Positions 4,889 through 50,046 of a DNA stretch of 64,000 nt are shown here, one piece after another. A program made the translations under genes and the position numbers. Below the pieces are notes generated by a model. It ran no database searches, had not been told where the DNA came from, and was given only the letters and a program-made list of their open reading frames with translations. Every line of letters begins with the position of its first letter. The stretch's first letter is position 1. The stretch lies in the NCBI GenBank assembly GCA_039931165.1, contig JBDTSL010000001.1, positions 2,214-66,213 of the forward strand, in the 5' to 3' direction. Source of the stretch: Candidatus Doudnabacteria bacterium. Lineage in GTDB: Bacteria; Patescibacteriota; Doudnabacteria; UBA920; O2-02-FULL-48-8.

Positions 4889-5154
4889 TTGATGTACTTT
4901 TTTAATCTATAAGTTAACCACGCCGTGGTACTCGCGATTGCCAAGACTATACCGATTAAAGTAACCCAGGGCAGCGTGTGATGCATGTTGTTGTCGATCC
5001 ATTTGCCCAAAAGCGCCAAAACCACGAGTGGAATCGCGATTATATAACCCAGCTCAAAGCTTAAGCTGATGAGAGCTGCTTTATCGAGTTTTTTGGGTTT
5101 TTGTAGAGGTGATTCCATATTGAAGCGCGTAAATTCTAACAAAAAAAGCCTCAT
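4885..5154 (-). CDS. Small two-TM membrane protein, possible ATP synthase protein I/AtpZ-like
   Basis: 89 aa hydrophobic protein immediately upstream of atpB, overlapping its start. Assignment is by position and size only. Confidence 0.4.
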   Translation of the reverse strand: MRLFLLEFTRFNMESPLQKPKKLDKAALISLSFELGYIIAIPLVVLALLGKWIDNNMHHTLPWVTLIGIVLAIASTTAWLTYRLKKYIK

Positions 5155-5200: not shown

Positions 5201-6877
5201 TCATTGAATTAGATCCGAAAACACCACCAGCCGTTGAGGATAACTGTTGGTGATTTTATTAAAATCGCCGATGCAGGTAATAAGAATAAGACGGTTACCT
5301 CCGTTTGAAACAAAAATATCCGAAGCATCCGCTTTTGCTTCGTAGAAACGGCGCTCTCTGACCTCAAATACAAAAGAAACTCCCCTGTCGTCTACCACCG
5401 ACATCGTTTGGCCTACAGTTACATTTTTCAGATTATCAAAAATCGCGGTCTGTCCGCCCGACCAAATCCCGCTATGGCCGTCTATAACGGCATTGCCCGG
5501 CTGGCCAGGTCGAGGGCCCAAATTAAACCATCCGACATGGGCGCGGCCCGCGGCTGTATCCATGGCTCCGGCCGCTGTCAAACCGACTTGCTCGATCGCG
5601 GCATTGACCCTGATGCTGGGAATTTTCAAAAAAGCCGGCAGTCCGCTGGGAATTGGTTTCGGCACAGGGATAGGTTTGGGGGTGGTTGTATTTGGAAGCG
5701 TCGGAGTTGGAATAGGTACCGGAGTGGGAACCGGAGCGATTGGGACCGGCACAATCGCTACGGGGTTACTGAGCGAAGGACTGGGCAGAACTGAGAGAGG
5801 TTGACCGCTAAAATAACTGTTAACCAGAAAGTACGCGAGCAGGCAGATCAGGGATCCGACAACAATAATCACCATCAGTGTTTTTTGTTTTCTTAACCCT
5901 GCCCACAGCGCAAGCAAGCCGGATATTGCCGCAAACGAGATTACAATTGCCCAATTCGTGGGATTGCTTGAACCGGGATCGGTTGCCACACCGGCCGTAA
6001 TATCAAAAAGATTTGGCGGAGTCGGCAACAGATCCGTGCTCGGAAAATCCGGAGCCCGGACCATGCCCGGCACAGCCACTATAACATTTATGGAAACTTT
6101 ATCCATCGCGGCCAGACCATTGGCGATCCCTTCGGCAGTAGCGATACTCTTCGCGTTTGCGGTAAGTTTAACTGAGCAGGTGTATATCCAAGACTCGCCG
6201 GCGTTAAGCAGTTTGTCGCTGTTGGCATCACCCGTTGGTCCTATTACGGACTGGCATTGATCGTCAGAAACGCTGATTCTGCCAATCGGGGCAATTCCCG
6301 GGTTCGAAACCTTATAAGTATACGTTACAAGTCCGCCGCCGAAGGGCAGGACAAACTGATCGGGTTGCGCTACAAGATGAATCAAAGGAGGAATTATGGG
6401 TTCGCTGACCACCACCGTGGCACTGGAGATGGCTGTCGCTGTCAGACCGACAGAATTGCCTGTGGCGGTGGCTGTATTGGTTGTGGTCCGGCCGATCTGA
6501 GTCGTACACCGGTATAACCAAATTTCGTTTGTATCGAGAATCAGATTAAGATTGGGGTCGCCGGAAACAAAACTTACCGAAGCGCATCTGTCGTCAGCAA
6601 CCTTTAAATTATGCACGCCGACTGTTCCGGCATTGGCAACCTTAAAAGTATAAGTGACCAATCCTGGACCTGCGGGCAAAGTCAGCGGGTTTGGCACTTC
6701 CGTAAGGGAAATCAGCGGAGGAATAGCGATAATACTGGCTTGATCCACAGTAGGGTTTGTTTGTATTTGCGCATTTGCGTACATGGCGCCGCACAACACG
6801 ACGAACAAAATCGGCAGGACCAAAAATGCGAACTTGGCAAAAATTCTTTTAGCACGCATGTTCTCGATATGTTTCAT
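5201..6877 (-). CDS. Fusion protein: signal peptide + two DUF11-like repeat domains + sorting-signal-like segment (FPSTD, TM, RKQK) + Pro-rich linker + C-terminal sortase domain
   Basis: The N-terminal 330 aa parallel the C-terminal halves of the adhesins at 7959-11169, with LTLPAGPGLVTYTFKV...VADDRC and LVTYTYKVSNPG repeats. The C-terminal ~190 aa carry the sortase catalytic triad: His in AVIDGH, Cys in LILITC, Arg in QRLVVF. They align with the neighbouring sortase at 6909-7859. Confidence 0.7.
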   Translation of the reverse strand: MKHIENMRAKRIFAKFAFLVLPILFVVLCGAMYANAQIQTNPTVDQASIIAIPPLISLTEVPNPLTLPAGPGLVTYTFKVANAGTVGVHNLKVADDRCASVSFVSGDPNLNLILDTNEIWLYRCTTQIGRTTTNTATATGNSVGLTATAISSATVVVSEPIIPPLIHLVAQPDQFVLPFGGGLVTYTYKVSNPGIAPIGRISVSDDQCQSVIGPTGDANSDKLLNAGESWIYTCSVKLTANAKSIATAEGIANGLAAMDKVSINVIVAVPGMVRAPDFPSTDLLPTPPNLFDITAGVATDPGSSNPTNWAIVISFAAISGLLALWAGLRKQKTLMVIIVVGSLICLLAYFLVNSYFSGQPLSVLPSPSLSNPVAIVPVPIAPVPTPVPIPTPTLPNTTTPKPIPVPKPIPSGLPAFLKIPSIRVNAAIEQVGLTAAGAMDTAAGRAHVGWFNLGPRPGQPGNAVIDGHSGIWSGGQTAIFDNLKNVTVGQTMSVVDDRGVSFVFEVRERRFYEAKADASDIFVSNGGNRLILITCIGDFNKITNSYPQRLVVFSDLIQ

Positions 6878-6908
6878 GGTGTATATTATTAATGATCAGC
6901 TTTATTGC

Positions 6909-7859
6909 TTACAAGACTATATAAGAGTTAAGTATTTTTCTCGTGGCCGGGCCGACATTGCCTAAAACATCAAGACCGTTATCCTTCTGAAATTCTCTGA
7001 CCGCGCTCTGCGTTTCGGTTTGGAAAGAATCGGAGAGCGGCGAATTGAGAGGAATATATCCCAAACATTTAAGAAGACTCTGAAGCAATACCACTTGGGA
7101 GCCGCTACTGCCGATTTTCAATGGACCGGTGAAAGATTCAGCCAGACCACAAGGCCCAGTTTCGTTGGCCGCGGCAGGAAGAGAATATAGCCCGGCCGGT
7201 ATTGGAGGTCCTTCCGCTACTGCCGGCGCCTCGGTCCGGACTCCCGCCACTTCCCCATCCACAAGATCCGCGAATACCACAAACCGTTTAGAGTAGGTTT
7301 TTTTCGATTTATCCCAGACCCCGGCGCAAGTAACAAGATTAAGATGCGCGCCGCTGTCAGACGAATAAACTTCCGGGACCTTGGCGTCAAAATCATAAAA
7401 TCTGGTCTCCCGCACCGCAAAAGGCACGGATTCTCCGTTTTCCGTCAGGATCTGCACCATATCTCCTTTGACCAGCTTATTTAGATTATAAAATACGGCC
7501 GCCTTCCCGTTGGTCCAATCCAAATGGCCTGCGATGACCGAACTGCCCTCCTGACCCGGTTTGGGTCCTTGATCATACCACCCGACATCCTCGGGGCGCT
7601 TAGGCACGTCCATTGCGCCGCCCGCTGTTTCACCCACATTCTCTATGGCGGCGTCGACATTTAAACTCGGGATCACTAAACGCAACGGCTGTCCGTAATC
7701 CGCGGGTTGGTCTTTTATGCCCGCCAGCACAGGAGCGCTGGCTATCTGTTTAGCCGGAGTTTTATCATAATCAAGAGCATACCGTAAAAACAGCAGGAGG
7801 CATATCGCGAATCCGGCCACTAGGATCACGGAGAATTGTTTGCTAAAAAATGTTTTCAT
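6909..7859 (-). CDS. Sortase (transpeptidase) with C-terminal peptidoglycan-binding domain
   Basis: N-terminal TM anchor, His in SVIAGH, Cys in LNLVTC, Arg in KRFVVF. The C-terminal ~60 aa (LQSLLKCLGY...FQTETQSAVREFQKDNGLDVLGNVGPATRKIL) look like a PG_binding_1-type domain. Confidence 0.75.
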   Translation of the reverse strand: MKTFFSKQFSVILVAGFAICLLLFLRYALDYDKTPAKQIASAPVLAGIKDQPADYGQPLRLVIPSLNVDAAIENVGETAGGAMDVPKRPEDVGWYDQGPKPGQEGSSVIAGHLDWTNGKAAVFYNLNKLVKGDMVQILTENGESVPFAVRETRFYDFDAKVPEVYSSDSGAHLNLVTCAGVWDKSKKTYSKRFVVFADLVDGEVAGVRTEAPAVAEGPPIPAGLYSLPAAANETGPCGLAESFTGPLKIGSSGSQVVLLQSLLKCLGYIPLNSPLSDSFQTETQSAVREFQKDNGLDVLGNVGPATRKILNSYIVL

Positions 7860-7958
7860 TCCGAGAAAATATCTTCAAGGACATTATATCAGAAAAGCCG
7901 GACAACCTGACCTAAGACAGGTTCATCCGGCAATTTGGACTTGCAGTGTCTAACTCTA

Positions 7959-9548
7959 CTATTTTCCCGCACGAATTCGCTTTCGGTCAAATTTTCTTCG
8001 GTAAATATAAAGCAGGAACAAAGCTCCGATTATTCCGACCGGAAAAATAATTTTCCATGGGGTGCTATGATCCGCGCTCAGCCCTGTACTTGGAAACGCA
8101 GGAACTTCTGTGGCCGGCAACGCAGGCGGCGCAACCACCACAGTAGCGAACGCAAGATCAGTGGCAGTTATGCCATTGGCCGTGCCGGAGGCTGTGGCAG
8201 TGTTCAGGGTCGTGGCAGTGAGATTTGAGATACAGGTAAAGCTCCAGCTCTCGGTCGGTTCGAGCAGATTGTTTTGATTGATATCTCCCGGGTGTCCTAC
8301 AACTCTACCGGGTAAGCCTGTGCATTTGTTATCAGTAACAGTTACATCACTTAAAGCCACGGTACCCGGGTTGGTGACGGTATATCTGTAAGTAACCGCT
8401 CCGCCGCCTGCCGGCAGTGTGAAAGGATAAGGGATCTTTACCACATGGATCAAAGGAGGAACGACGGCAGCGCCGACGACAACTGTTGCGGTGGCTGTGT
8501 CGGTAGAGCTTAGTCCCAGAGAGAATCCTGTGGCTGTGACGGTATTTGTATGAGTGGCGGCTAGGGTCGTGGCGCAGTTGTATATCCAGACTTCAGTCAG
8601 ATCCAGCGCGCCGTTGGCATTGGTATCGCCGGAGACAAAGTTTACCGGGCCACAGCTGTCATCGGTCACTCTGACAGTGGACATCGGGACAGTTCCGATG
8701 TTACGGACAGAGTAAGTGTAGGTCACGAGCCCGGGACCGCTGGGCAATGATAATGGGCTGGGTACTTTTAGGACATCGATCAGCGGTGGGACCGGGACCG
8801 GGCCTCCGGGGCCGGCGGGCGGTGTGCCTGATGAACATGAGTCAGAAATAGCATTAGTCTGCAACGTTACTTCACCAACCAAAGCTAAGGCGCGGCCAAT
8901 CAAACTTGCGCCGGTGGCTAATGTAATATCGCCAGAGTTTGTGATAATGGTTCCCTTGATCTGTGAGCCGGTACCGATGTTCATAGCTATCGGAACCTGC
9001 CAATATACATCGCAGGCGCTAGCTCCATTGGTTACCGCAACAGTAGTACCTCCGCTATCAGTGATACTGGACGTACTGCTGAAAATGTAGACGCCGGCGC
9101 CATCAAGAGTAATGGTGCCGCCGGTCATAACTCCCGCGGCTACATCATAAACTCCTGGGGTGATCGTTACATTCCCTGACAAAGTTTGGGCTGGTCCAGG
9201 CCCTTGAGCCGCAAGTTGCCCATACGCAGTAAGCGCATCGGCTTCGGGAGTATTCACTGTAGGAGCAACATCATATCCTGCCGCGATTCCCGGACCCGCT
9301 GTATCAGCGAATCCTACGTTCGAGCTATCAGACCCGACACGTCCCGAAAGTACCGATAAGCCTGTATTTGTCACCCCCGCTTTACCAAGAGCCGAATAGG
9401 CAGCAGACGCTCCGAGGGTTGGCGCTACGCCTGTAACGGCATAAACAGTAGTGCCTTTCATTACAAACATTCCAGCCACCAAGGTCACTAAAAGAAATCC
9501 AACAAATAACGTTTTATTGTATTTTTTTGTTGTTCGTTTTTTTATCAC
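7959..9548 (-). CDS. Sortase-substrate surface protein A: signal peptide + ice-binding-like (DUF3494-type) beta-helix + two DUF11 repeats + C-terminal sorting signal (LPATE/FPSTG, TM, RRKFDRKRIRAGK)
   Basis: The N-terminal region has Gly/Thr/Ser-rich beta-solenoid repeats. Its C-terminal 240 aa are near-identical to the paralog at 9568-11169. It ends in a hydrophobic helix plus a basic tail. Confidence 0.65.
   Translation of the reverse strand: MIKKRTTKKYNKTLFVGFLLVTLVAGMFVMKGTTVYAVTGVAPTLGASAAYSALGKAGVTNTGLSVLSGRVGSDSSNVGFADTAGPGIAAGYDVAPTVNTPEADALTAYGQLAAQGPGPAQTLSGNVTITPGVYDVAAGVMTGGTITLDGAGVYIFSSTSSITDSGGTTVAVTNGASACDVYWQVPIAMNIGTGSQIKGTIITNSGDITLATGASLIGRALALVGEVTLQTNAISDSCSSGTPPAGPGGPVPVPPLIDVLKVPSPLSLPSGPGLVTYTYSVRNIGTVPMSTVRVTDDSCGPVNFVSGDTNANGALDLTEVWIYNCATTLAATHTNTVTATGFSLGLSSTDTATATVVVGAAVVPPLIHVVKIPYPFTLPAGGGAVTYRYTVTNPGTVALSDVTVTDNKCTGLPGRVVGHPGDINQNNLLEPTESWSFTCISNLTATTLNTATASGTANGITATDLAFATVVVAPPALPATEVPAFPSTGLSADHSTPWKIIFPVGIIGALFLLYIYRRKFDRKRIRAGK
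8136..8832. repeat. About 700-bp near-identical segment shared with 9725-10421 (the DUF11-repeat halves of adhesins A and B), offset 1589 bp
   Basis: Long identical runs were read directly, for example ccaccacagtagcgaacgcaagatcagtggcagttatgccattggccgtgccggaggctgtggcagtg. There is one short divergent patch near 8715-8760 versus 10318-10360. Confidence 0.85.
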
Positions 9549-9567
9549 GAATCCCAGTTTTATTTTA

Positions 9568-11169
9568 TTAAAACGCTCGTTTTTTTCGGGCCACGTAGAA
9601 CAGCAATAAGGCCGCGATCATTCCCGCCGGAAGGATGACATTCCACAAAGTATTTCTTCCCGCTGGCGCATATCCGGTAGCTGCCAAACCGATGCCTGGA
9701 GGCGGAGTTGGTGTTGCCGGCGGCGCTACCACCACAGTAGCGAACGCAAGATCAGTGGCAGTTATGCCATTGGCCGTGCCGGAGGCTGTGGCAGTGTTCA
9801 GGGTCGTGGCAGTGAGATTTGAGATACAGGTAAAGCTCCAGCTCTCGGTCGGTTCGAGCAGATTGTTTTGATTGATATCTCCCGGGTGTCCTACAACTCT
9901 ACCGGGTAAGCCTGTGCATTTGTTATCAGTAACAGTTACATCACTTAAAGCCACGGTACCCGGGTTGGTGACGGTATATCTGTAAGTAACCGCTCCGCCG
10001 CCTGCCGGCAGTGTGAAAGGATAAGGGATCTTTACCACATGGATCAAAGGAGGAACGACGGCAGCGCCGACGACAACTGTTGCGGTGGCTGTGTCGGTAG
10101 AGCTTAGTCCCAGAGAGAATCCTGTGGCTGTGACGGTATTTGTATGAGTGGCGGCTAGGGTCGTGGCGCAGTTGTATATCCAGACTTCAGTCAGATCCAG
10201 CGCGCCGTTGGCATTGGTATCGCCGGAGACAAAGTTTACCGGGCCACAGCTGTCATCGGTCACTCTGACAGTGGACATCGGGACAGTTCCGATGTTACGG
10301 ACAGAGTAAGTGTAGGTCACAGATCCGGGACCACCAGGCAAAGACAAAGGGCTGGGTACTTTTAGGACATCGATCAGCGGTGGGACCGGGACCGGGCCGC
10401 CGGGGCCGGCGGGCGGTGTGCCTGCACATGTCACCGGTGTGGCTATATTGGTCGTATTCCCCGTTGTAACTACTCCGCCAAATGACAAGGCCCTTCCTGT
10501 CCAGTTTACGTTAGCACCAGTTGTAATGCCCGAATCATCAATAACTGTTCCTAACATAGTCGTATTGTCTGCGAGTGATGTTGCAGAAGTGGCAGTCCAA
10601 AAAACGTCACACGGAGATGCCCCGGCCACTTGCACAATCGCCCCTGCCGACGAGGTTAGGGCGCCAAAAATCCTGAATATATATGTTCCAGCTCCATTAA
10701 GCGTAATTGTGCCTGTTATCTGCGCAGCACTACCGGCTGTAGTGCAATAAATTCCGGGCAGATAAACTCCAATACCACCAGGGTGAAGGGCTTCAGTGCC
10801 CAGATTAACCGCTCCGGCTGGGAAAGTGTAATCGCAAGGCAATTGAGCATTCAAATTAACAAGTGCGCTGCCCTGATCTGTGCCTGCGGTAGAATATGGA
10901 GCACCCGAGCCGTAGCGCAGCTGTGTGCCTAGCGGGTGAACTGCCGGTCCTGTAGTAAATCCGATATCGCCGTTAACCGTGGTTCCGGCGAAGGTATTAA
11001 TGAAAGAACTGGCAAGAATGGCATATGATGTGGCCGCTCCAAGGTTCGGAGTTGTAGCCGCACGAGCCATAAGGCCATTCATCATAGAAATCCCGGCCAT
11101 AAGCAGAATAACCAACAGAGATATAACAATCCGGCCTTTGTATTTTTTTGCGTTTCGTTTTTTTATCAT
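9568..11169 (-). CDS. Sortase-substrate surface protein B: ice-binding-like (DUF3494) N-domain + two DUF11 repeats + LAATG sorting signal
   Basis: After the signal peptide the protein reads LGAATSYAILASSFINTFAGTTVNGDIGFTTGPAV, matching the DUF3494 family opening. The C-terminus is GIGLAATGYAPAGRNTLWNVILPAGMIAALLLFYVARKKRAF. LAXTG is the class-E sortase motif. Confidence 0.7.
   Translation of the reverse strand: MIKKRNAKKYKGRIVISLLVILLMAGISMMNGLMARAATTPNLGAATSYAILASSFINTFAGTTVNGDIGFTTGPAVHPLGTQLRYGSGAPYSTAGTDQGSALVNLNAQLPCDYTFPAGAVNLGTEALHPGGIGVYLPGIYCTTAGSAAQITGTITLNGAGTYIFRIFGALTSSAGAIVQVAGASPCDVFWTATSATSLADNTTMLGTVIDDSGITTGANVNWTGRALSFGGVVTTGNTTNIATPVTCAGTPPAGPGGPVPVPPLIDVLKVPSPLSLPGGPGSVTYTYSVRNIGTVPMSTVRVTDDSCGPVNFVSGDTNANGALDLTEVWIYNCATTLAATHTNTVTATGFSLGLSSTDTATATVVVGAAVVPPLIHVVKIPYPFTLPAGGGAVTYRYTVTNPGTVALSDVTVTDNKCTGLPGRVVGHPGDINQNNLLEPTESWSFTCISNLTATTLNTATASGTANGITATDLAFATVVVAPPATPTPPPGIGLAATGYAPAGRNTLWNVILPAGMIAALLLFYVARKKRAF
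9725..10421. repeat. Second copy of the ~700-bp intragenic repeat
   Basis: See the feature at 8136-8832. Confidence 0.85.
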
Positions 11170-11347
11170 AATCTTCCTGACTTTCGTTAGGCGGGTTAAT
11201 TATTTAGTTTATTTGTATTTCGAACCATGCGGTCTGTGAATCTAGCTTTTTTAGTGTCTTTTTTATGAAAATAGCTTCTGTACATATTATGATATGCTTT
11301 ATGGTAAATGTCAAAACTAACGCTGTGGATAACAGCTTATACCAAAA

Positions 11348-11374
11348 CCACCTGCTGATGCAGGTGGTTTTTTA
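11348..11374. terminator. Intrinsic terminator-like hairpin (ccacctgc-tgat-gcaggtgg) followed by T6
   Basis: Perfect 8-bp stem with a T-run on the plus strand and an A/T-rich run on the other side. Lies between adhesin genes B and C. Confidence 0.5.
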
Positions 11375-11383
11375 TGATTCGGT

Positions 11384-11490
11384 TTTTGCGAGCGACCGCT
11401 TTTGAAGCTTGAGATCTGGCGGGAGCGAATCAATCTCATCTTTAATTGAGATTGCTTCGTCGTCCCGATAAATCGGGACTTCTCGCAAAA
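11384..11490 (+). repeat. Family-1 structured intergenic element, copy a
   Basis: Outer inverted repeat TTTTGCGAG/CTCGCAAAA. Inside it, CGAATCAATCTCA pairs with TGAGATTGCTTCG, then a hairpin TCCCGAT-AAA-TCGGGA, then CTTCTCGCAAAA. Confidence 0.6.
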
Positions 11491-11502
11491 TTGAGAGAAA
11501 AT

Positions 11503-12645
11503 TTAAAGCGCTTTTTTTCTTCGGGCAATGTAGAGCAGGAACAAAACCGCGACTATGCCAATTGGCAGGATCACATTCCAGGGAGTCGCTTTTTGCGCCG
11601 GATTAAATCCTGTAGCTGCCAGCCCGAGGCCGGGTGGCGGAGTAACTGCTACTGGCACAGGAGTGACCACATTTGCCGTATTTACGATGGTGCAGCCGGT
11701 CGTAAGGCCTGCTACAACCGTGATCGAGCCGCAAGTGGATGAATTTTGAGTCCAGCCGGACGGCACTACTTCCGTGGCTGAATAAACTCCTGGGGTAAGA
11801 CCGCTTTGGGTATGTGATCCGGTTCCTGCCGAGGTTGAAATGCTGAAACTAGAGAAGCCGGCGCCGGTGGTGTTAAAGTTGAATGTGCCATTGCCTCCGA
11901 CCGCTGTTTTATTTACGGTAATTGATCCTGTGGCCGGAAGTCCAGAAGCGCATACCGGTGTGGTAATCGTATTGAGAGAGGTGGTGACGGTTCCGCCAAA
12001 TGCCAGGACTCTCCCTGTCCAAGTAGCGAGGTTGCCGAGTGTAATGCCCGAAGCATCGATGTCCCGGCCTACGAAGGCAGAGTTTGCTCCAAGCGTTGTG
12101 GCAGCGCCCGGGGTCCACCAGACATCACAAGAGGTCGCGCCATTGGAGGCCGTGACCACGGAATTGGCCACAGTGGTAAGCGCTCCGGTCATCCGGAAAA
12201 TGTATACGCCGGCGCCATTCAGAGTAATTCCGCCGGTTCCTACGTCAGCCGCGCCCAGAACGCAATATACTCCCGGTGTGTAAACGCCGACCGGACCGTG
12301 TGTGGTATCGGCAGCGAGGTCAATTGCCCCGGGTGCGAATGTAAACGTACACGGCTGGCTGTTCAGGGCAGACAAAGCCGCTCCCTGATCTATGCCGGCC
12401 TGGGCATAAGTAGCATCAGCCGTATGGGTGACGCCAGTGACTGTGGGCGCTACAGCAGGCCCGGTGGTATATCCCAGATCGCCGTTAATGACGGTCCCGA
12501 CCAAAGTGTTGGTATAGGAACCGGAAAGAACGGTAAAGCTGTTGGCCGTCCCAAGGCCCGGTGACGTTGCCGCGTTGGCTGTGACCCCAACCATAAGAAC
12601 AGCGGCCAATAAAATGATAGTGAACAGGATATTAATCTTTTTCAT
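11503..12645 (-). CDS. Sortase-substrate surface protein C: ice-binding-like (DUF3494) domain + Thr/Gly-rich Ig-like segment + LAATG sorting signal
   Basis: Reads LGTANSFTVLSGSYTNTLVGTVINGDLGYTTGPAV after the signal peptide. C-terminus is PGLGLAATGFNPAQKATPWNVILPIGIVAVLFLLYIARRKKAL. Confidence 0.7.
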   Translation of the reverse strand: MKKINILFTIILLAAVLMVGVTANAATSPGLGTANSFTVLSGSYTNTLVGTVINGDLGYTTGPAVAPTVTGVTHTADATYAQAGIDQGAALSALNSQPCTFTFAPGAIDLAADTTHGPVGVYTPGVYCVLGAADVGTGGITLNGAGVYIFRMTGALTTVANSVVTASNGATSCDVWWTPGAATTLGANSAFVGRDIDASGITLGNLATWTGRVLAFGGTVTTSLNTITTPVCASGLPATGSITVNKTAVGGNGTFNFNTTGAGFSSFSISTSAGTGSHTQSGLTPGVYSATEVVPSGWTQNSSTCGSITVVAGLTTGCTIVNTANVVTPVPVAVTPPPGLGLAATGFNPAQKATPWNVILPIGIVAVLFLLYIARRKKAL

Positions 12646-15387: not shown

Positions 15388-15888
15388 CTAGTTGCTGCCT
15401 GGGCCAATCGTAATAGTACCGGCATAATTATAAAATGTGCCGCAATAATTCACTCCCGGGCTTGCCAGCGTGTTAAGGTTCTCAAGTTTATAGACGATCA
15501 TGTAAGCTCTGCCGCAAGAAAGATAAGCTATATTATAATACCCCGCTCCTGCCCAGCCGCCAGTTTGATTTAAAGGATCGAGTGGCAGTCTGGACATATA
15601 CGCGGACATAGCTGTCTGCAAAGTCGTCCAACTTGCGTCGCTACTATTGCTCCAATTAAAGTCCGGGTTGGCAGACCCTCCGGAAGAGGGATAGCCCGCA
15701 TGATCTGTGAAATATAATTCAAGTCCCGACATCATTTGTTTTACATCAGCTATCCTTTTTGCATCCCTCGCTTTTAGCCTGGCGCTGCTGAGAGACACCA
15801 AAACAATAGCGGCCAAAAGCCCGATGATCGCGATCACAACCAGAAGTTCGATTAGGGTAAACCCGTTTGATTTTTTTATTAATTGCAT
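15388..15888 (-). CDS. Type IV pilin-like protein (prepilin N-terminal methylation motif)
   Basis: N-terminus KKSNGFTLIELLVVIAIIGLLAAIVLV has the G/FTLIE class-III signal plus a hydrophobic helix. Confidence 0.8.
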   Translation of the reverse strand: MQLIKKSNGFTLIELLVVIAIIGLLAAIVLVSLSSARLKARDAKRIADVKQMMSGLELYFTDHAGYPSSGGSANPDFNWSNSSDASWTTLQTAMSAYMSRLPLDPLNQTGGWAGAGYYNIAYLSCGRAYMIVYKLENLNTLASPGVNYCGTFYNYAGTITIGPGSN

Positions 15889-36226: not shown

Positions 36227-36655
36227 TCATAGTTTATTTTTCTCCAAAAATTGGCTGAATTGCGGAAACTCCTGGCGCAAAACGTCCTTGTTAATTTGGG
36301 CCTTGACCGCTTCCTGCAAAATCCGGAGGGCTGTATGAGTATCAACCGGCAAAATATCCTCAACAAATTCAAGGACTTCGCCTTCCAGTAATTTTCGTTC
36401 CGAGATATGGATGCTCATCTGGATCCGCTCCGTCAAGGGGAACAATTCGTCAAAATCTTTCGTCAGATCCATGATCAATTTCAAAAAAACCTGCTCATTG
36501 TCGATAAGATTGATGTTATCCACGACTTTCTGGGCAATTTCAGCCGCGCGCTGCAAACTGATATTCCTGACCCGCAGCTGCTCAGCCAGAAAATAACAGA
36601 CGGATTTGGCGTATTGGTCATTTGGCTTGCTCTTGTTCACGTTAGTTTCCTGCAT
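36227..36655 (-). CDS. Hypothetical protein
   Basis: 142 aa helical acidic protein. Its start overlaps the upstream pilin gene stop by 14 nt. Confidence 0.4.
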   Translation of the reverse strand: MQETNVNKSKPNDQYAKSVCYFLAEQLRVRNISLQRAAEIAQKVVDNINLIDNEQVFLKLIMDLTKDFDELFPLTERIQMSIHISERKLLEGEVLEFVEDILPVDTHTALRILQEAVKAQINKDVLRQEFPQFSQFLEKNKL

Positions 36656-37139
36656 AAAAATTTAAGCCAGTGTTATTCCAGGCGGCAAAAGTGGCCACTG
36701 CTGATGGGTTGGATTGATTCTCCAGTCTGGTTGCCAAAATGTAGTCCGTTGCCAGGTCGGTGAAGAGATAATCACAACATCCGTTTCTCTTAAAGCCGCG
36801 GGCATAGTAATAACCGTATTGGGCGTCGATGTTGATCGGGTCAATTGGAATCGAAGTCAAATACGCTGGGACTAACCCAAGTGTCTTGATGTCACCATAA
36901 AAAGGACTGGTCGAAGTGCATGCTGTAGTACTGGCGCCAGTACAAGTCGGATAAAAGCCATTATCGTTAATATACAGCGCTAGTGCGGCCTGCAATTGGT
37001 GCATGTCTGTCAGCCGCTTGGCGTCCCGAGATTTGGAGCGTGCGGTTCCCAACGCAACTATGACCACAGAGGCCAAAAGCCCGATGATGGCGATGACGAC
37101 GAGCAATTCAATTAAGGTAAAGCCTTTATTTTTAATCAT
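36642..37139 (-). CDS. Type IV pilin-like protein
   Basis: N-terminus MIKNKGFTLIELLVVIAIIGLLASVVIVAL is a prepilin motif. Has C-terminal Cys pairs. Confidence 0.8.
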   Translation of the reverse strand: MIKNKGFTLIELLVVIAIIGLLASVVIVALGTARSKSRDAKRLTDMHQLQAALALYINDNGFYPTCTGASTTACTSTSPFYGDIKTLGLVPAYLTSIPIDPINIDAQYGYYYARGFKRNGCCDYLFTDLATDYILATRLENQSNPSAVATFAAWNNTGLNFYAGN

Positions 37140-37183: not shown

Positions 37184-39718
37184 CTAGCCAGATTTTTCCA
37201 CAATTGCCGGGCCGGCAGTCATCGGCGAGCCGAGCTTGGTGCGGTTTAGAATTTCTGTCTGGACTTCCAAACGGGATTTGCCGTGTTTCAGGCTCGAGAG
37301 ATTGCGGATGACTTTGCCCATTTCCGGATCGGCGCCTGGAGGTTTGGGATAAGTTTCCATATTGAAAGGGCGCGAACCGGTTCCTCTGATCATCAGTTTC
37401 ACATAGGCGTTATAACGGTCGATGTTGATGACGTCAAATTCATTGAATACCGGCGCGAATTCTTTGGCTATGATCTCCGCGTCTTCCACGCCGATCCTGA
37501 AGGCCACGATAGTGCCGGTATTGCCGAAAACCGCGTCTTTCATCCTTGTGTCGATGGCCGACGAGCCTTCTTTTTCCTGAGCCAGCTGAGAAATAAACTG
37601 ATGGGCCATGATCAGGTTCAGGCGATATTTACGGGCTTCGGATAAAATAGTGGCAAAACTGTCTGTAACGAAATTTTGGAACTCATCCACATATAAATAA
37701 AAATCGCGCCGCTTGTCTTCCGGAATATCGGCGCGGGAGAGCGCGGCCATTTGAAGCTTGGATACGATGATCAAGCCCAAAAGCTTGGCGTTGATCTCGC
37801 CGGTCTTGCCTTTCGACAGATTGATCAGGAGGATCTTGCCCTGGTCCATGACCTCGCGGAAATCGAAAGCGCTTTCCGGCTGGCCGATGATGTTGCGCAT
37901 CATTTCGTTTTCCACGAACCGTCCGACTTTAGAAACCAGATAGCCCAGCATTTCGGATTTATGGAAATCGGACGTTTTAGCCATCTCCTTTTCCCAGAAA
38001 CTGCGGACTATGGGATCTTTGACTTTTGAAACTTTATATTTCTGAAAATCCGTGTCCGTAAACATCCGCGGAATGTCGGCGAGAGTTCCCGGCGACTGCT
38101 TGTCTTCCATCAAGGTCAGCATGACGTTGCGCATATTGTGCTCAAACATCGGGCCGATCATCTCCGGCGGGAACAGCTTCATGAAAATCGCGATCATCTC
38201 CTGGACGGCAAAATCTTTTTGCTCCGGGCTTTTCACTTCCAGCATATTCAGGCCCAACGGCCGCTCCATGTCGAAAGGCTCGAACAGGATGACGTCATCG
38301 GCTCGCTCTTTGGGAATGTACTGCAGAACGTCTTCCACAAAATCGCCGTGCGGGTCCACTATACAGAGTCCTTCGCCGGACCTGATGTCCTGGATGGCCA
38401 TATTTTTTAGCAGTTCGGTTTTGCCGGTGCCGGTGCGACCGATTATATACTCATGCCGCCTGCGGTCGTCCCGCTCCAGATAAATTTTGGTTTCAATGCC
38501 GCGGTATGTATTTTTGCCGAGCAGGACTCCTGAGGTCGGGGTGTTTACCGGCGCCGGGGCTTTTTTCGCGGTCACCCATTTGATGTTCGGCGTTTCCATA
38601 TACCTGGTGGGCAGGTGCCAGATGCTTGCCAATTCTTCGGTATTTAAGATCTCCCGAGTATTTCTAAAAACCCGGAAAATGTAATCGGTCATGACCTGAG
38701 CCTGCTTTTTGCTCATAACCCTAAAACCATTGAACGGCGGCATGGTGTATTGCATGAATGACGCCAGAATATTGCGAAGACTCGCATCTGCCGATCTTTG
38801 GTCGGTTGATGAGCAAATGACCCGAAGATTAAATTTAAATCCGGTTTTGGACGCTTTTTCCTCGAATTTTTTGATCATCTCCTGCTGCATGGGAGTCAAC
38901 TGCAGCGGTTTTTTCATGCCGGAATTGTCCATATATCCCTGCTGTTGATGAGCCTGATTTTTTGGGGAAAATAATTGATTCAAAGCGCTCCCTATCAGGC
39001 CAAGTGTCCCATTGAGAGCCTTGCTGGCGGTTGAAGAGGTCACCACATCCGGGTTGCGACCCTGCTGGATCTGCAAGGCGTAATGCCTTGGCTTCGATTG
39101 CCAGTGATGTGTCGCCGGGCTGATCAAAAGCTGGATGGCGGCTCCCTCGTCCGTGGCCAGTTTCGACAGGCTGTTGGTCAGGGAATTAAGCGGGTCGGTC
39201 TCCATAACCTTGTAAGTGCGCAAGGGAAACGAATAGCTTTTTTGCAGCTGCAGCTCCGCTGCCGCAACCGCTGATTTCGGCGAAAAAATATTATACGCCT
39301 TTACCAGGTCTATCTGGGCATTCGGATACTGGGCATGAAGTTGTTTTTCCACCAAATTCTGGGAACGTTTCGGGACATTGATATAAAAAGATATCTTTTT
39401 TTTGTGGGCCGCGATCTCAAAGCTCATGTATTCGTTAATGCCCAAAAAATGTTTCAGGTCAGTGCCTTCGGTGGTACCGATGGTGGCAAAAAACTGTTCG
39501 GCAATGCCGATGATATCTTTTTCCTCTTTCTGCGGTTCCTGTTCCGGATTGGAATTTTCCTTGGAGATCGTGACTTCCAGGAAAACCGAATCCATGATCC
39601 TGGGCGCCCAGGTTTTTTTGCGCAATAGATCAATTGCCAAAAAATACAAAATCAGGCCTACCAGGCCCAGGATAGCTATTAGTATGAGTGAGAAAATAAT
39701 TAGCGAGCTGTTGATCAT
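37184..39718 (-). CDS. Membrane-anchored VirD4/TraG/TraD-like P-loop ATPase (type IV coupling-protein family) with a ~400-aa N-terminal extracytoplasmic domain
   Basis: N-terminal TM. Walker A IIGRTGTGKTELL followed by IVDPHGDF, Walker B FYLYVDEFQNF, and the C-terminal motif LIMAHQFISQL (TraG-D_C-like HQxxxQL). Confidence 0.55.
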   Translation of the reverse strand: MINSSLIIFSLILIAILGLVGLILYFLAIDLLRKKTWAPRIMDSVFLEVTISKENSNPEQEPQKEEKDIIGIAEQFFATIGTTEGTDLKHFLGINEYMSFEIAAHKKKISFYINVPKRSQNLVEKQLHAQYPNAQIDLVKAYNIFSPKSAVAAAELQLQKSYSFPLRTYKVMETDPLNSLTNSLSKLATDEGAAIQLLISPATHHWQSKPRHYALQIQQGRNPDVVTSSTASKALNGTLGLIGSALNQLFSPKNQAHQQQGYMDNSGMKKPLQLTPMQQEMIKKFEEKASKTGFKFNLRVICSSTDQRSADASLRNILASFMQYTMPPFNGFRVMSKKQAQVMTDYIFRVFRNTREILNTEELASIWHLPTRYMETPNIKWVTAKKAPAPVNTPTSGVLLGKNTYRGIETKIYLERDDRRRHEYIIGRTGTGKTELLKNMAIQDIRSGEGLCIVDPHGDFVEDVLQYIPKERADDVILFEPFDMERPLGLNMLEVKSPEQKDFAVQEMIAIFMKLFPPEMIGPMFEHNMRNVMLTLMEDKQSPGTLADIPRMFTDTDFQKYKVSKVKDPIVRSFWEKEMAKTSDFHKSEMLGYLVSKVGRFVENEMMRNIIGQPESAFDFREVMDQGKILLINLSKGKTGEINAKLLGLIIVSKLQMAALSRADIPEDKRRDFYLYVDEFQNFVTDSFATILSEARKYRLNLIMAHQFISQLAQEKEGSSAIDTRMKDAVFGNTGTIVAFRIGVEDAEIIAKEFAPVFNEFDVINIDRYNAYVKLMIRGTGSRPFNMETYPKPPGADPEMGKVIRNLSSLKHGKSRLEVQTEILNRTKLGSPMTAGPAIVEKSG

Positions 39719-47110: not shown

Positions 47111-49402
47111 CTATTTCACGCTGTGTCCGCCGAACTGCTCGCGCATGGAAGAAACCAGTTTCCCGACAAAACTCTTAGTTTTTTTTGATCTCACCCGGAA
47201 CCGGAACGACTGTTCGATGATGGCGGCCGGAATTCCCAGCTCTTTGGCGGTTTTGGCGGTCCATTCGCCTTCACCTGTATAACCCACGACCCCGGATATC
47301 CCTTTCAGATTCTGGCCTCGGGCCAAAAATGCATCCTTCAGCCAGCCGACCAATCGAGATTCCACCACGCTGCCGTGATTGTATATATCAGCAACGTCGA
47401 TCAGGTTTAATTTAAACGGCGAGGCTTTCATGATGCCGAACCCTTCCGCGATAGACTGCATCATGCCGTACTCAATGCCGTTATGGACCATTTTCACGAA
47501 ATGGCCGGCGCCGGCTTTACCGAAATATTTGTAGCCATCAGGAATGGACATGGCATCGAACAACGGCCTGAGTTTTTCAAACAGATTCTCTTTGCCGCCG
47601 ATCATCAGACAGCCGCCGCGGAGCGCTCCTCCTGGGCCGCCGGAAAAACCCACGTCCATAAAATCAATGCCTTTTTTCGCGAGCAATCCGCCGCGCCGGA
47701 TGGAATCCTTATAAAACGAATTACCGCTGTCTATCACAATATCGCCCCGTTCCAAATAATCGGCTAACCCGTCCCGGCTAAACAGGACCGCATCGACTTC
47801 AGCGTGCGGCACCATCAGCCAAAAAAGTCTTGGGCGCGGCAGGGAAGCCGCGAGTTCCTTCCAGTTATTTACCGGCTTAAAATTTTTAAATCGCGATAAT
47901 TCCTCGATTGCTTGTTTGGAATGCTGATTAGTCGCGATAATTTGCCAATTTTTTTCCAAAAGCTGTATTGCCAGGTTCTTGCCCATTTTACCCAAACCGA
48001 TCATGGCAAATTTTTTATGGGCAAAATGGGGTTTGGGCAATTGATCAAACATCTGCAAAATCTTCGTATTTTTTTTATATACAGCCAGCGGCGTTGATTT
48101 TTTCTTCCAGTCGGCGATAATCGGATCAATAAATCGCCAGGAAGCGATCGCTTCACGCGAGGAGACAAACAATGTCTGGTCGCCTTCCATGGCATCCCTG
48201 ATTAGCTTGCGGTATTCGGCCACATAGCGAAGTTTGGACTCGGATTCATAGTCAAACCGCAGCTGGCGCTTTTCTAAAACCATGTCCTGCCCTTGCTTAT
48301 TCCAAAATTCTATTTCAATTCCCGGGTTTGGCTGTATCCGAAAAATAATCCGGTTTTTGAATTCCACGCCCTTCAATGTCACAACGATTTCTTTTTTCGT
48401 TTCATGCAGGTTTTTCCCAGCTTCCAGGTAAATCGGCACGTTTTGCCACCTGGGACTGTTAATGTGAGCCAATAGCTTAAAGTATGTCTCAGTATTTGAT
48501 GTCCGGGACACTCCTGGCTCTTTCTTGTAACCCTGGTATTGTCCGCGCAAGGTCTGATTTTTGATTTCGTTTTCACCAAGCAGACGCAAATGGCCGATGA
48601 CCTCGGCGCGCTTGCTGCGAATGATATGCGGATCCGGCGAATTGGGATTATCCATAGTGATCAGAGCCATCATTTGCAGCAAATGATTCTGGCCCATATC
48701 CACCAAAGCGCCGGTGGCGTCATAAAACTCGCCGCGGCTCTCGACATCGATTTCCTCCAGGGTGCGGATCTCGATCTTTTCGATGAAATTATGGTTCCAG
48801 ACGTTCTCTAGCAAATTGTTGGCAAACCTGAACGCCATAATGTCCTGCAGGATATCCTTGGCTAAATAATGGTCTATCCTGTAAATTTGATCGTCGGTGA
48901 AAAGTTTGCCCAAGAGCAAATCGAGTTCTTCGGCGTGGCGAAGATCCTTGCCGAACGGTTTTTCCACGATTATCCTGGCCCACAGGCCGGATTTGGCGCG
49001 GGTCAAACCCGACTTTGCCAGTTCCCGCAGCAATCCGTCATAAAAAATCGGAGGCGTAGCCAGATAAAATAATTTATTCCCGGCGCCTTTAAGCTTGCCG
49101 ACAAGCGACTGAAACGCGTCTTTCTGATCGAACATTCCCTGATGATAAGAAAACAATCTCAAAAAAGGGCCAATATTACCCTGGATCTTTACTTTTTTAC
49201 GCAAAGATTTTTTTAAAAGTTGGCGAAACTGTTCGTCGGAAAAAGGCCGGCGGGCAAAACCAATCACCCGAAATTTCGCGGGCAACTGTTTTTCAAGATA
49301 CAAATGGTAAAGCGCGGGCAGTAATTTGCGCTCAACCAGATCACCTGTGGCGCCGAAGATCACCAAAACCGTCGGTTCTTTAATGCTCTTGCGTATTGCC
49401 AT
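47111..49402 (-). CDS. zwf-gnd: Fused glucose-6-phosphate 1-dehydrogenase (N-terminal ~470 aa) and 6-phosphogluconate dehydrogenase, decarboxylating, short form (C-terminal ~290 aa)
   Basis: The Zwf part has NADP site GATGDLVERKLLPAL, signature RIDHYLAKD and EKPFG. The Gnd part has Rossmann MIGLGKMGKNLA, VIDSGNS, DVGFSGG and GAGHFVKMVHNGIEYGMMQ. It is one uninterrupted ORF. Confidence 0.85.
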   Translation of the reverse strand: MAIRKSIKEPTVLVIFGATGDLVERKLLPALYHLYLEKQLPAKFRVIGFARRPFSDEQFRQLLKKSLRKKVKIQGNIGPFLRLFSYHQGMFDQKDAFQSLVGKLKGAGNKLFYLATPPIFYDGLLRELAKSGLTRAKSGLWARIIVEKPFGKDLRHAEELDLLLGKLFTDDQIYRIDHYLAKDILQDIMAFRFANNLLENVWNHNFIEKIEIRTLEEIDVESRGEFYDATGALVDMGQNHLLQMMALITMDNPNSPDPHIIRSKRAEVIGHLRLLGENEIKNQTLRGQYQGYKKEPGVSRTSNTETYFKLLAHINSPRWQNVPIYLEAGKNLHETKKEIVVTLKGVEFKNRIIFRIQPNPGIEIEFWNKQGQDMVLEKRQLRFDYESESKLRYVAEYRKLIRDAMEGDQTLFVSSREAIASWRFIDPIIADWKKKSTPLAVYKKNTKILQMFDQLPKPHFAHKKFAMIGLGKMGKNLAIQLLEKNWQIIATNQHSKQAIEELSRFKNFKPVNNWKELAASLPRPRLFWLMVPHAEVDAVLFSRDGLADYLERGDIVIDSGNSFYKDSIRRGGLLAKKGIDFMDVGFSGGPGGALRGGCLMIGGKENLFEKLRPLFDAMSIPDGYKYFGKAGAGHFVKMVHNGIEYGMMQSIAEGFGIMKASPFKLNLIDVADIYNHGSVVESRLVGWLKDAFLARGQNLKGISGVVGYTGEGEWTAKTAKELGIPAAIIEQSFRFRVRSKKTKSFVGKLVSSMREQFGGHSVK

Positions 49403-49437
49403 ATAAAGTATATTAGCATAAAATGTGTAAGTAATTC

Positions 49438-50046
49438 ATGTCTACACTGCCGAAATCGATCCAGAATCTGATCAACGAATTTTCCAAACTACCGGGCATC
49501 GGGCCGAAAACCGCTTCCCGCCTGGCTTTTTATTTGCTCAAAACCCCCAACATCGACCTTCAAAGTTTTGCCCAGGCCGTAGCGGAGTTGCAAAAAAATA
49601 TTATTTATTGCTCGACCTGCTTTAACATGGCCGAATCAGACCCCTGCAAAATTTGCGCCGATTCAAAGCGCGACCATGATCTGATCTGCGTGGTGGAAGA
49701 CCCGTTGGATGTGGTGGCCATGGATCAGATCTCCAATTTTAACGGCGTCTACCATGTCTTGGGCGGAGTTATCTCGCCGCTCGACGGCATGGGGCCGGAT
49801 AATCTTAAAATCACCGAGTTGCTGGCACGATTGTCGGCGCCGGGAGCAAAAGAAATTATCCTGACCACCAATCCTTCGCTGGAAGGCGAAGCCACAGCCA
49901 TGTACATTGCCAAGCAACTGCGGCAGGCGCAATTTTCGCATATAAAAGTCACTCGCATCGCCAGAGGCCTTCCTTCCGGCGCGGATCTGGAATACACAGA
50001 CGAATATACTTTGAGCAAAGCCATCGAAGGCCGCCGGGAATATTAG
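49438..50046 (+). CDS. recR: Recombination protein RecR
   Basis: HhH motif LPGIGPKTASRLAF, C4 zinc finger CSTCFNMAESDPCKICAD, and a Toprim domain. Confidence 0.9.
   Translation: MSTLPKSIQNLINEFSKLPGIGPKTASRLAFYLLKTPNIDLQSFAQAVAELQKNIIYCSTCFNMAESDPCKICADSKRDHDLICVVEDPLDVVAMDQISNFNGVYHVLGGVISPLDGMGPDNLKITELLARLSAPGAKEIILTTNPSLEGEATAMYIAKQLRQAQFSHIKVTRIARGLPSGADLEYTDEYTLSKAIEGRREY

Follow-up and report, generated by a model that had tools for sequence, protein, structure and literature searches.

Fusions between enzymes of the oxidative pentose-phosphate branch have been described before. The only fusion of glucose-6-phosphate dehydrogenase (G6PD, encoded by zwf) to 6-phosphogluconate dehydrogenase (6PGD or 6PGDH, encoded by gnd) that we found in the literature is that of the diatom Phaeodactylum tricornutum. 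It was reported in 2011 as the only such fusion in nr, and JGI subsequently divided the gene model (Stover, Dixon & Cavalcanti 2011, PMC3148214). Fusions of G6PD to 6-phosphogluconolactonase (6PGL, encoded by pgl) occur as Plasmodium GluPho, as metazoan H6PD and in Giardia and Trichomonas, and they arose repeatedly (PMC3148214). Here, we describe a zwf::gnd gene in a 64,000-nucleotide stretch of DNA from a Candidatus Doudnabacteria bacterium (contig JBDTSL010000001.1, positions 2,214 to 66,213), which is called the window below and is numbered from its first letter. The two parts of its product are referred to as the Zwf half and the Gnd half.

The Phaeodactylum protein carries the same two activities as the window protein, with G6PD at the N-terminus and 6PGD at the C-terminus, and it skips the lactonase as well. 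Like the window protein, it was recognized from sequence alone, and it is likened here by its published description. It differs in being eukaryotic and in having been reported for one species and its closest relatives (PMC3148214). The G6PD::6PGL enzymes also join G6PD to another oxidative pentose-phosphate enzyme, but in those enzymes a Glucosamine_iso/6PGL domain links step 1 to the step that follows it, whereas the window protein connects the non-consecutive steps 1 and 3; a Pfam scan of the window protein matched no such domain (PF01182), and its linker spans only about 16 aa.

Both halves also have stand-alone counterparts. Short-chain 6PGDHs have been solved from Gluconobacter oxydans (10gw/6xeq), Gluconacetobacter diazotrophicus (6vpb), and Mycobacterium tuberculosis (8ihe/9ijb) (PMC12871650). 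Like the Gnd half, these enzymes and 4e21 are about 300 aa long and have one helical hemi-domain, with KMVHNGIEYG on the catalytic helix and RX2FGXH in the C-terminal tail. Unlike the window protein, they are separate polypeptides with an Asp at the end of beta2, and their structures carry an insertion before GAGHF that the Gnd half does not have. A short-chain gnd beside zwf is a widespread gene pair, found in many phyla, as zwf-gnd-pgl in the candidate phyla radiation (CPR), as gnd-zwf-pgl in Chloroflexi, Bacteroidetes, Nitrospirota, and other metagenome-assembled genomes (MAGs), and as gnd-zwf without a pgl match in Pseudomonas. In contrast to the window, these operons keep separate genes, usually with pgl linked, and occur in both orders, of which only zwf-gnd gave fusions.

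A full-text literature search found no description of a bacterial or CPR Zwf-Gnd fusion; matches in a Woesearchaeota paper and in a CPR RuBisCO paper used "fused" in unrelated senses. A survey of CPR central metabolism describes this branch of the pathway as patchy and low in phylogenetic depth, and does not mention such a fusion (PMC7304191). The fused proteins are visible in public databases, where they are named "glucose-6-phosphate dehydrogenase" (NCBI) or "6-phosphogluconate dehydrogenase" (JGI), and never both. They are thus under-annotated and uncharacterized. They fall within the known kind of fusion between G6PD and another oxidative pentose-phosphate enzyme. Because only one half is named, reconstructions based on names or on single best hits can score the branch as incomplete in CPR bacteria.

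A single reading frame for Zwf and Gnd

The gene is a single open reading frame (ORF) that begins with ATG, encodes 763 aa, and contains no internal stops in the ORF list of the window. An earlier note on this DNA had pointed out the uninterrupted frame, and all of the motifs it quoted were found: GATGDLVERKLLPAL (aa 17-31), EKPFG (147-151), and RIDHYLAKD (175-183) in the Zwf half, and MIGLGKMGKN (467-476), VIDSGNS (556-562), DVGFSGG (583-589), and GAGHFVKMVHNGIEYGMMQ (631-649) in the Gnd half. Its view that a complete Zwf and a complete short-form 6PGDH share the frame also held up, as seen from the Pfam domains (Table 1) and the NCBIfam cut-offs, which both halves exceeded. Against TIGR00871, the zwf equivalog (EC 1.1.1.49), the Zwf half scored 434.4 bits (cut-off 400.6) over aa 10-447 and matched profile positions 2-467 of 486, its C-terminal end being shortened. 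The Gnd half (aa 464-763) matched TIGR00872 (gnd_rel) end to end with 323 bits (cut-off 297.2; profile positions 2-296 of 299) and scored 325.6 bits against the short 6PGDH model NF007161 (cut-off 271). The PF00393 match in the Gnd half covers profile positions 1-117 of 290, which corresponds to a single hemi-domain.

The residues expected of each enzyme lie in the appropriate domains. GATGDL (aa 17-22, from the dinucleotide-binding motif GxxGDLx(R/K)K), the 2'-phosphate site A-R51-R52, and EKPFG are contained in the Zwf Rossmann domain; RIDHYLAKD, the counterpart of the active-site nonapeptide RIDHYLGKE, lies just upstream of the Zwf catalytic domain, and Q-N-H240, with the catalytic His, lies within it. 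The Gnd Rossmann domain contains GLGKMG, N561-S562, and S587-G-G, and the helical hemi-domain contains K637, H640, N641, and E644; these four residues and S587-G-G align with solved 6PGDHs. The protein ends in R754-E-Q-F-G-G-H760-S-V-K, which places the RX2FGXH motif three residues from the C-terminus.

An NCBI protein encoded on a 159,654-bp contig of a Candidatus Doudnabacteria MAG matches the window protein with 100% identity. Homologs were searched for in a collection of 5.8 billion proteins, and the best 120 matches were analyzed. The earlier note had proposed comparing the architecture of orthologs, and all 120 of these proteins (735-839 aa; 47-65% identity) have the same four domains. 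They come from NCBI, JGI, ENA, and Logan assemblies and were assigned to Doudna-, Levy-, Harrison-, Wolfe-, and Roizmanbacteria and Saccharibacteria, and also to bins labelled Woesearchaeota and Bathyarchaeota. A genome scan using one genome per species gave 80 loci, each of which was checked for an uninterrupted frame. Complete fused genes were present at 13 of them (L001, L002, L004-L014), and another (L027) was cut by a contig end. Scan matches that spanned positions 1-763 in Pseudomonas, Mycobacterium, Bacillales, Chloroflexi, and others were adjacent genes and were rejected as fusions.

Conservation was examined in an alignment of the 120 fused proteins, in which the mean column identity was about 53%. 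In the Zwf half, GATGDL, EKPFG, D177, H178, and K182 of RIDHYLxK, and H240 of QNH were invariant or nearly so. The same was true in the Gnd half for GLGKMG, N561-S562, S587-G-G, GxGHFxKMxHNGIEYGxMQ, and the tail residues R754, F757, G758, and H760. Among these, D177, H178, K182, H240, S587-G-G, K637, H640, N641, E644, and the four tail residues were invariant. The retention of these residues at this level of overall identity points to purifying selection on both catalytic centers. An AlphaFold2 (AF2) monomer model built on 64 homologs had a mean predicted local distance difference test score (pLDDT) of 89.2, which fell to about 70 at the linker (aa 451-460); a short helix was modelled at aa 447-454. 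In the model both halves are well folded, and the Zwf half superimposed on the Leuconostoc mesenteroides and human G6PD structures with a target-normalized template modelling (TM) score of 0.83. No solved chain was found that spans both halves, either by structure (query-normalized TM no higher than 0.54) or by sequence. Taken together, the ORF is very probably a genuine, selectively maintained bifunctional enzyme with a variable linker of about 16 residues.

Several observations weigh against this reading. The window misses the strict PROSITE G6PD pattern, which we take to be DH[YF]LGK[EQK], since A181 and D183 replace G and E; Ala at position 181 is the family norm (108 of the 120 fused homologs), and D177, H178, and K182 are kept in RIDHYLAKD. 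The predicted TM score (pTM) of the AF2 model is 0.68, which does not fix the placement of the halves relative to each other. The Gnd half has T-N492-Q-H-S at the 2'-phosphate pocket, with neither Asp nor Arg. Also, of the trees described in the next section, that of the Gnd halves is less clean than that of the Zwf halves, and both are without support values.

An assembly or sequencing artefact, in which a homopolymer indel in the A-rich junction joined adjacent, translationally coupled zwf and gnd genes, would also produce a single frame. The junction DNA has A6, A8, and A6 runs, the ATG of M466 overlaps a TGA of another frame ("gccATGAtc", 48004-48007) in the manner of an ATGA stop/start overlap, and CPR relatives such as L018, L022, L030, and L032 are truly split with overlapping frames. 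However, KK-NxKIL-xxF and KK[LF]AM across the junction are conserved in the closest homologs (P0002-P0008), which come from independent assemblies. Because the frame on either side of each homopolymer aligns residue by residue with these proteins, a frameshift artefact is very unlikely, and the alignment across the A8 and A6 runs answers the earlier note's concern about a frameshift at the boundary. The alternative frame across the junction stretch translates to a sequence unlike Zwf. More than 120 independent fused homologs and the 13 complete fused genes from different genome projects also argue against an artefact. The note had placed the boundary at about 47990-48010, where the Gnd Rossmann fold begins; the linker lies slightly upstream, at 48014-48061.

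Two other explanations accept the frame and question the function of one half. A catalytically dead half with a purely regulatory or scaffolding role is very unlikely. The atypical N-Q-H-S cofactor loop in the window's subclade and the shortened Zwf end, which reaches profile position 467 of 486, would fit a dead half, but in both halves all residues known to act in catalysis or substrate binding are invariant across the 120 homologs at about 50% overall identity, and both halves score above equivalog or subfamily cut-offs. We consider it extremely unlikely that the C-terminal half is another beta-hydroxyacid dehydrogenase, of the HIBADH or tartronate-semialdehyde reductase type, with a different substrate. 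Models for 2-hydroxy-3-oxopropionate reductase, HIBADH, and L-threonate dehydrogenase also match the Gnd Rossmann domain; however, they do so with 38-64 bits against cut-offs of 290-450, whereas gnd_rel and NF007161 pass theirs. The C-terminal half contains both KMVHNGIEY and RX2FGXH, which are 6PGDH-specific motifs, and every one of its top PDB matches is a 6PGDH.

The ATGA at 48004-48007 was considered as the mark of a mis-joined gene pair and was rejected, since close homologs keep the same frame across the junction. It falls at Met466, in the first strand of the Gnd Rossmann fold, where it resembles a relic of a coupled zwf/gnd pair or may be a coincidence. An internal start at M466 that would give free Gnd was also rejected as a conserved feature because no Shine-Dalgarno sequence lies upstream and because only 11 of the 120 fused homologs have Met at this position. 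This Met is conserved only in the Doudnabacteria subclade.

Table 1. Features of the zwf::gnd gene and its upstream region, in window coordinates.
Feature	Position	Strand	Basis or remark
zwf::gnd fusion gene	47111..49402	-	Single ORF, 763 codons + stop at 47111-47113
Zwf NAD(P)-binding Rossmann domain, aa 14-186	48845..49363	-	PF00479 G6PD_N, 4.6e-51
Zwf beta+alpha catalytic/dimerization domain, aa 189-447	48062..48838	-	PF02781 G6PD_C, 3e-76
Inter-domain linker, aa 448-463, KILQMFDQLPKPHFAH	48014..48061	-	About 16 aa; length and sequence vary across the family
Gnd Rossmann domain, aa 464-619	47546..48013	-	PF03446 NAD_binding_2, 4.1e-35
Gnd helical hemi-domain and C-terminal helix/tail, aa 633-763	47114..47506	-	PF00393 6PGD (aa 633-743), 1.7e-19
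C-terminal RX2FGXH substrate-binding tail, R754-E-Q-F757-G758-G-H760	47123..47143	-	120-homolog alignment
Gnd cofactor 2'-phosphate loop, N492-Q493-H494-S495, atypical for the family	47918..47929	-	120-homolog alignment
Weak sigma-70-like promoter match, TAGACA-18-TATGCT	49415..49444	-	Consensus scan, 9/12 positions

Distribution, gene order, and origin

An exhaustive HMMER search of 1.84 billion representatives clustered at 50% identity, with E<=1e-30 taken as a strong match, returned 3,504 cluster representatives, of which about 14 were full-length fusions. The Zwf-Gnd fusion is therefore one coherent family, rare across life and dominant in its Patescibacteria clade. The earlier note had called the architecture uncommon, which is correct across life but not within this large clade, where all of the 120 best homologs are fused. 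Three other proteins from this search, in the metagenome collection, had different arrangements. In P0267 (606 aa), a full Zwf is preceded by a 6PGDH-type Rossmann domain, and the 6PGD helical domain is missing. In P0145 (868 aa), a Zwf is followed by about 420 C-terminal residues with no assigned domain, and P0215 (768 aa) is a Zwf-Pgl fusion.

Every fused gene among the 80 loci has the order Zwf-Gnd. Separate genes in the zwf-gnd order were found at about 23 loci (CPR lineages, Fictibacillus, Brevibacillus, Mycobacterium/Actinospica, and Zetaproteobacteria), and the gnd-zwf order was found at about 37 (Chloroflexi, Pseudomonas, Bacteroidetes, Ignavibacteria, Nitrospirota, Acetobacteraceae, and others). 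None of these approximately 37 adjacent gnd-zwf pairs was fused, even though several have only one in-frame stop between the genes. "Almost fused" states were seen in the zwf-gnd order. At the Parcubacteria locus L003, zwf and gnd are in the same frame with a single TAG (4948-4950) between them, and the Met of gnd follows three codons later. Similarly, at the junctions of the mycobacterial loci (L019, L021, and L025), zwf and gnd are in frame with one TAA in between.

Trees of the Zwf and Gnd halves were built by neighbor joining, which is distance-based, without support values. For the Zwf halves, one clade comprises 33 fused sequences together with just three split ones (L003, L018, and L022), and the remaining CPR split loci fall outside it. 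This suggests a single fusion event inside Patescibacteria with occasional secondary fission. L010, L012, and L013 are fused zwf::gnd genes on contigs of 64-69% GC labelled Coriobacteriia, Slackia, or Actinomycetes; each matches at 10001-12350, and the GC content of each gene equals that of its locus. They are nested inside the CPR fused clade, suggesting a lateral transfer, perhaps an old one, between CPR bacteria and Actinomycetota. Actinomycetota are hosts of Saccharibacteria. The fusion would have arisen, probably once, from a zwf-gnd(-pgl) operon in a Patescibacteria ancestor and would then have spread both vertically and laterally.

Proposed working of the enzyme and the lactonase step

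We infer the activities from the family assignments. The N-terminal half is predicted to convert glucose-6-phosphate and NADP+ to 6-phosphoglucono-delta-lactone and NADPH, and the C-terminal half is predicted to convert 6-phosphogluconate and NAD(P)+ to ribulose-5-phosphate, CO2, and NAD(P)H. Between these reactions, hydrolysis of the lactone would proceed off the enzyme, whether spontaneous or catalyzed by a Pgl whose gene lies elsewhere. Hydrolysis of 6-phosphogluconolactone can be spontaneous, but 6PGL is needed for efficiency (Stover et al., PMC3148214). The earlier note had suggested that the fusion would channel two of the three oxidative steps, which is too strong, since it is steps 1 and 3 that are joined, and lactone hydrolysis must take place before Gnd can act. 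A sealed channel is implausible for this reason, and literal channelling is doubtful. More likely benefits of the fusion are a fixed 1:1 stoichiometry, co-assembly, and, as the genome is streamlined, the removal of an intergenic or regulatory region. Co-expression would be obligatory at 1:1, with both dehydrogenases co-assembling into one oligomeric particle.

Such a particle, in which both halves self-associate, is expected by analogy because Zwf enzymes are dimers or tetramers and short-chain 6PGDHs are tetramers. Dimers and tetramers of human G6PD are named in the titles of PDB entries. In the tetrameric short-chain 6PGDHs, the last helix and the RX2FGXH tail close over the 6-phosphogluconate bound in the neighboring subunit (PMC12871650). 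This could explain the order of the halves. A free C-terminal RX2FGXH tail would be required to complete the active site of a neighbor, and a fusion in the opposite order would tether this tail to the Zwf Rossmann fold. The absolute order bias fits this proposal, as only the Zwf-Gnd order leaves the tail free. The single fused order would thus illustrate how quaternary structure constrains which gene neighbors fuse. The fusion is natural and widely conserved, and it joins two oligomeric dehydrogenases that produce NAD(P)H while leaving out the enzyme between them. The family provides a test case for selection on stoichiometry or co-assembly versus channelling. It may also offer a ready-made two-NADPH module for biocatalysis.

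In the Zwf half, A-R51-R52 is kept after beta2, with R51 present in 111 of the 120 fused homologs; in this enzyme family, this Arg contacts the 2'-phosphate of NADP+. The consensus at the end of beta2 in the Gnd half of the fused family is [YF]-N-R-T, and the long-chain 6PGDH 7cb0 has N-R-S. At the Asn position, the solved short-chain enzymes have Asp (8ihe YDHD, 6vpb FDRD, 10gw/6xeq HDRT, and 4e21 YDLN), and the M. tuberculosis enzyme (8ihe/9ijb) was deposited in the PDB as NAD+-dependent, in contrast to N-R-T in the fused family and N-Q-H-S in the window. Asp was also found at this position in 18 of the 120 fused proteins, and the inserted His of the N-Q-H-S loop was found in eight, all of the window's subclade. 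Since N-Q-H-S replaces the family's N-R-T and fits neither the NADP+ signature nor the Asp signature of NAD+, the cofactor preference of the window's Gnd half is uncertain. Together with the Asp variants, this loop hints at switches between NAD and NADP preference within the fused family.

We also looked for a lactonase. The earlier note was right that pgl is not adjacent to the fused gene, whose neighbors are dnaB, a 72-aa membrane ORF, recR, and rplU. None of the 40 window ORFs of at least 150 aa encodes a lactonase (PF01182 or PF10282) or any other pentose-phosphate enzyme. A Pgl hidden Markov model (HMM), built from the PF01182 gene near P0020 and iterated, matched pgl at the end of most gnd-zwf-pgl operons; against the six-frame ORFs of the window (at least 120 aa), it gave no match even at E<=10. 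The note had proposed looking for pgl elsewhere, and the HMM was also applied to loci beyond the window. In unfused CPR zwf-gnd loci, pgl was adjacent at 6 of 13, often divergently (L015, L022, L028, L030, L031, and L035). Of 18 fused genes, only the one at L083 had pgl within about 8-10 kb, 3.2 kb upstream and on the other strand. The difference in linkage gave a Fisher p of 0.012 with no phylogenetic correction. One possible explanation is that no dedicated lactonase serves the oxidative pentose-phosphate branch of the fused lineage, pgl having been lost from an ancestral zwf-gnd-pgl operon at fusion, and that these minimal genomes can do without Pgl owing to the proximity of the dehydrogenases or to hydrolysis at or close to the enzyme. 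The basis of this explanation is the association in linkage only, and we regard it as rather unlikely.

Genomic neighborhood

The fused gene stands alone between dnaB with the 72-aa membrane ORF on one side and the divergent recR on the other. The order recR, fusion gene, small membrane ORF, dnaB, cysS recurs on a 964-kb contig of a relative (GCA_037200925.1). In L082, the next gene downstream of the fusion encodes transketolase and overlaps the end of the fused gene; in L083, transketolase lies one gene further downstream. This ties the fused gene to the pentose-phosphate pathway.

The fusion gene and recR diverge, with only 35 bp between their start codons (49403-49437). The -10-like hexamer of the promoter match in Table 1 lies 13 nt upstream of the fusion ATG, and the number of such sites in the scan was not above the shuffle expectation. 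No Shine-Dalgarno sequence was found upstream of the ATG. Given this absence and the position of the hexamer, a near-leaderless fusion mRNA is possible, as a lead only.

Other genes in the window were recorded in passing. On the minus strand at 5201-12645 are two sortase-domain proteins (5201-6877 and 6909-7859) and three paralogous secreted-type proteins (7959-9548, 9568-11169, and 11503-12645) with Ice_binding-like and DUF7507 or SpaA-like domains. Possibly, this CPR locus encodes a surface fibre or adhesin assembled by sortase. At 37184-39718 (minus strand) is the gene for a type IV secretion coupling protein (TrwB/T4SS-DNA_transf), adjoined by that for a pilin-like protein with an N-terminal methylation motif (36642-37139, minus strand). 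A second pilin-like ORF (15388-15888, minus strand) lies 20 kb away from the first. The neighborhood of the coupling protein, corA, cysS, and dnaB is syntenic with L081.

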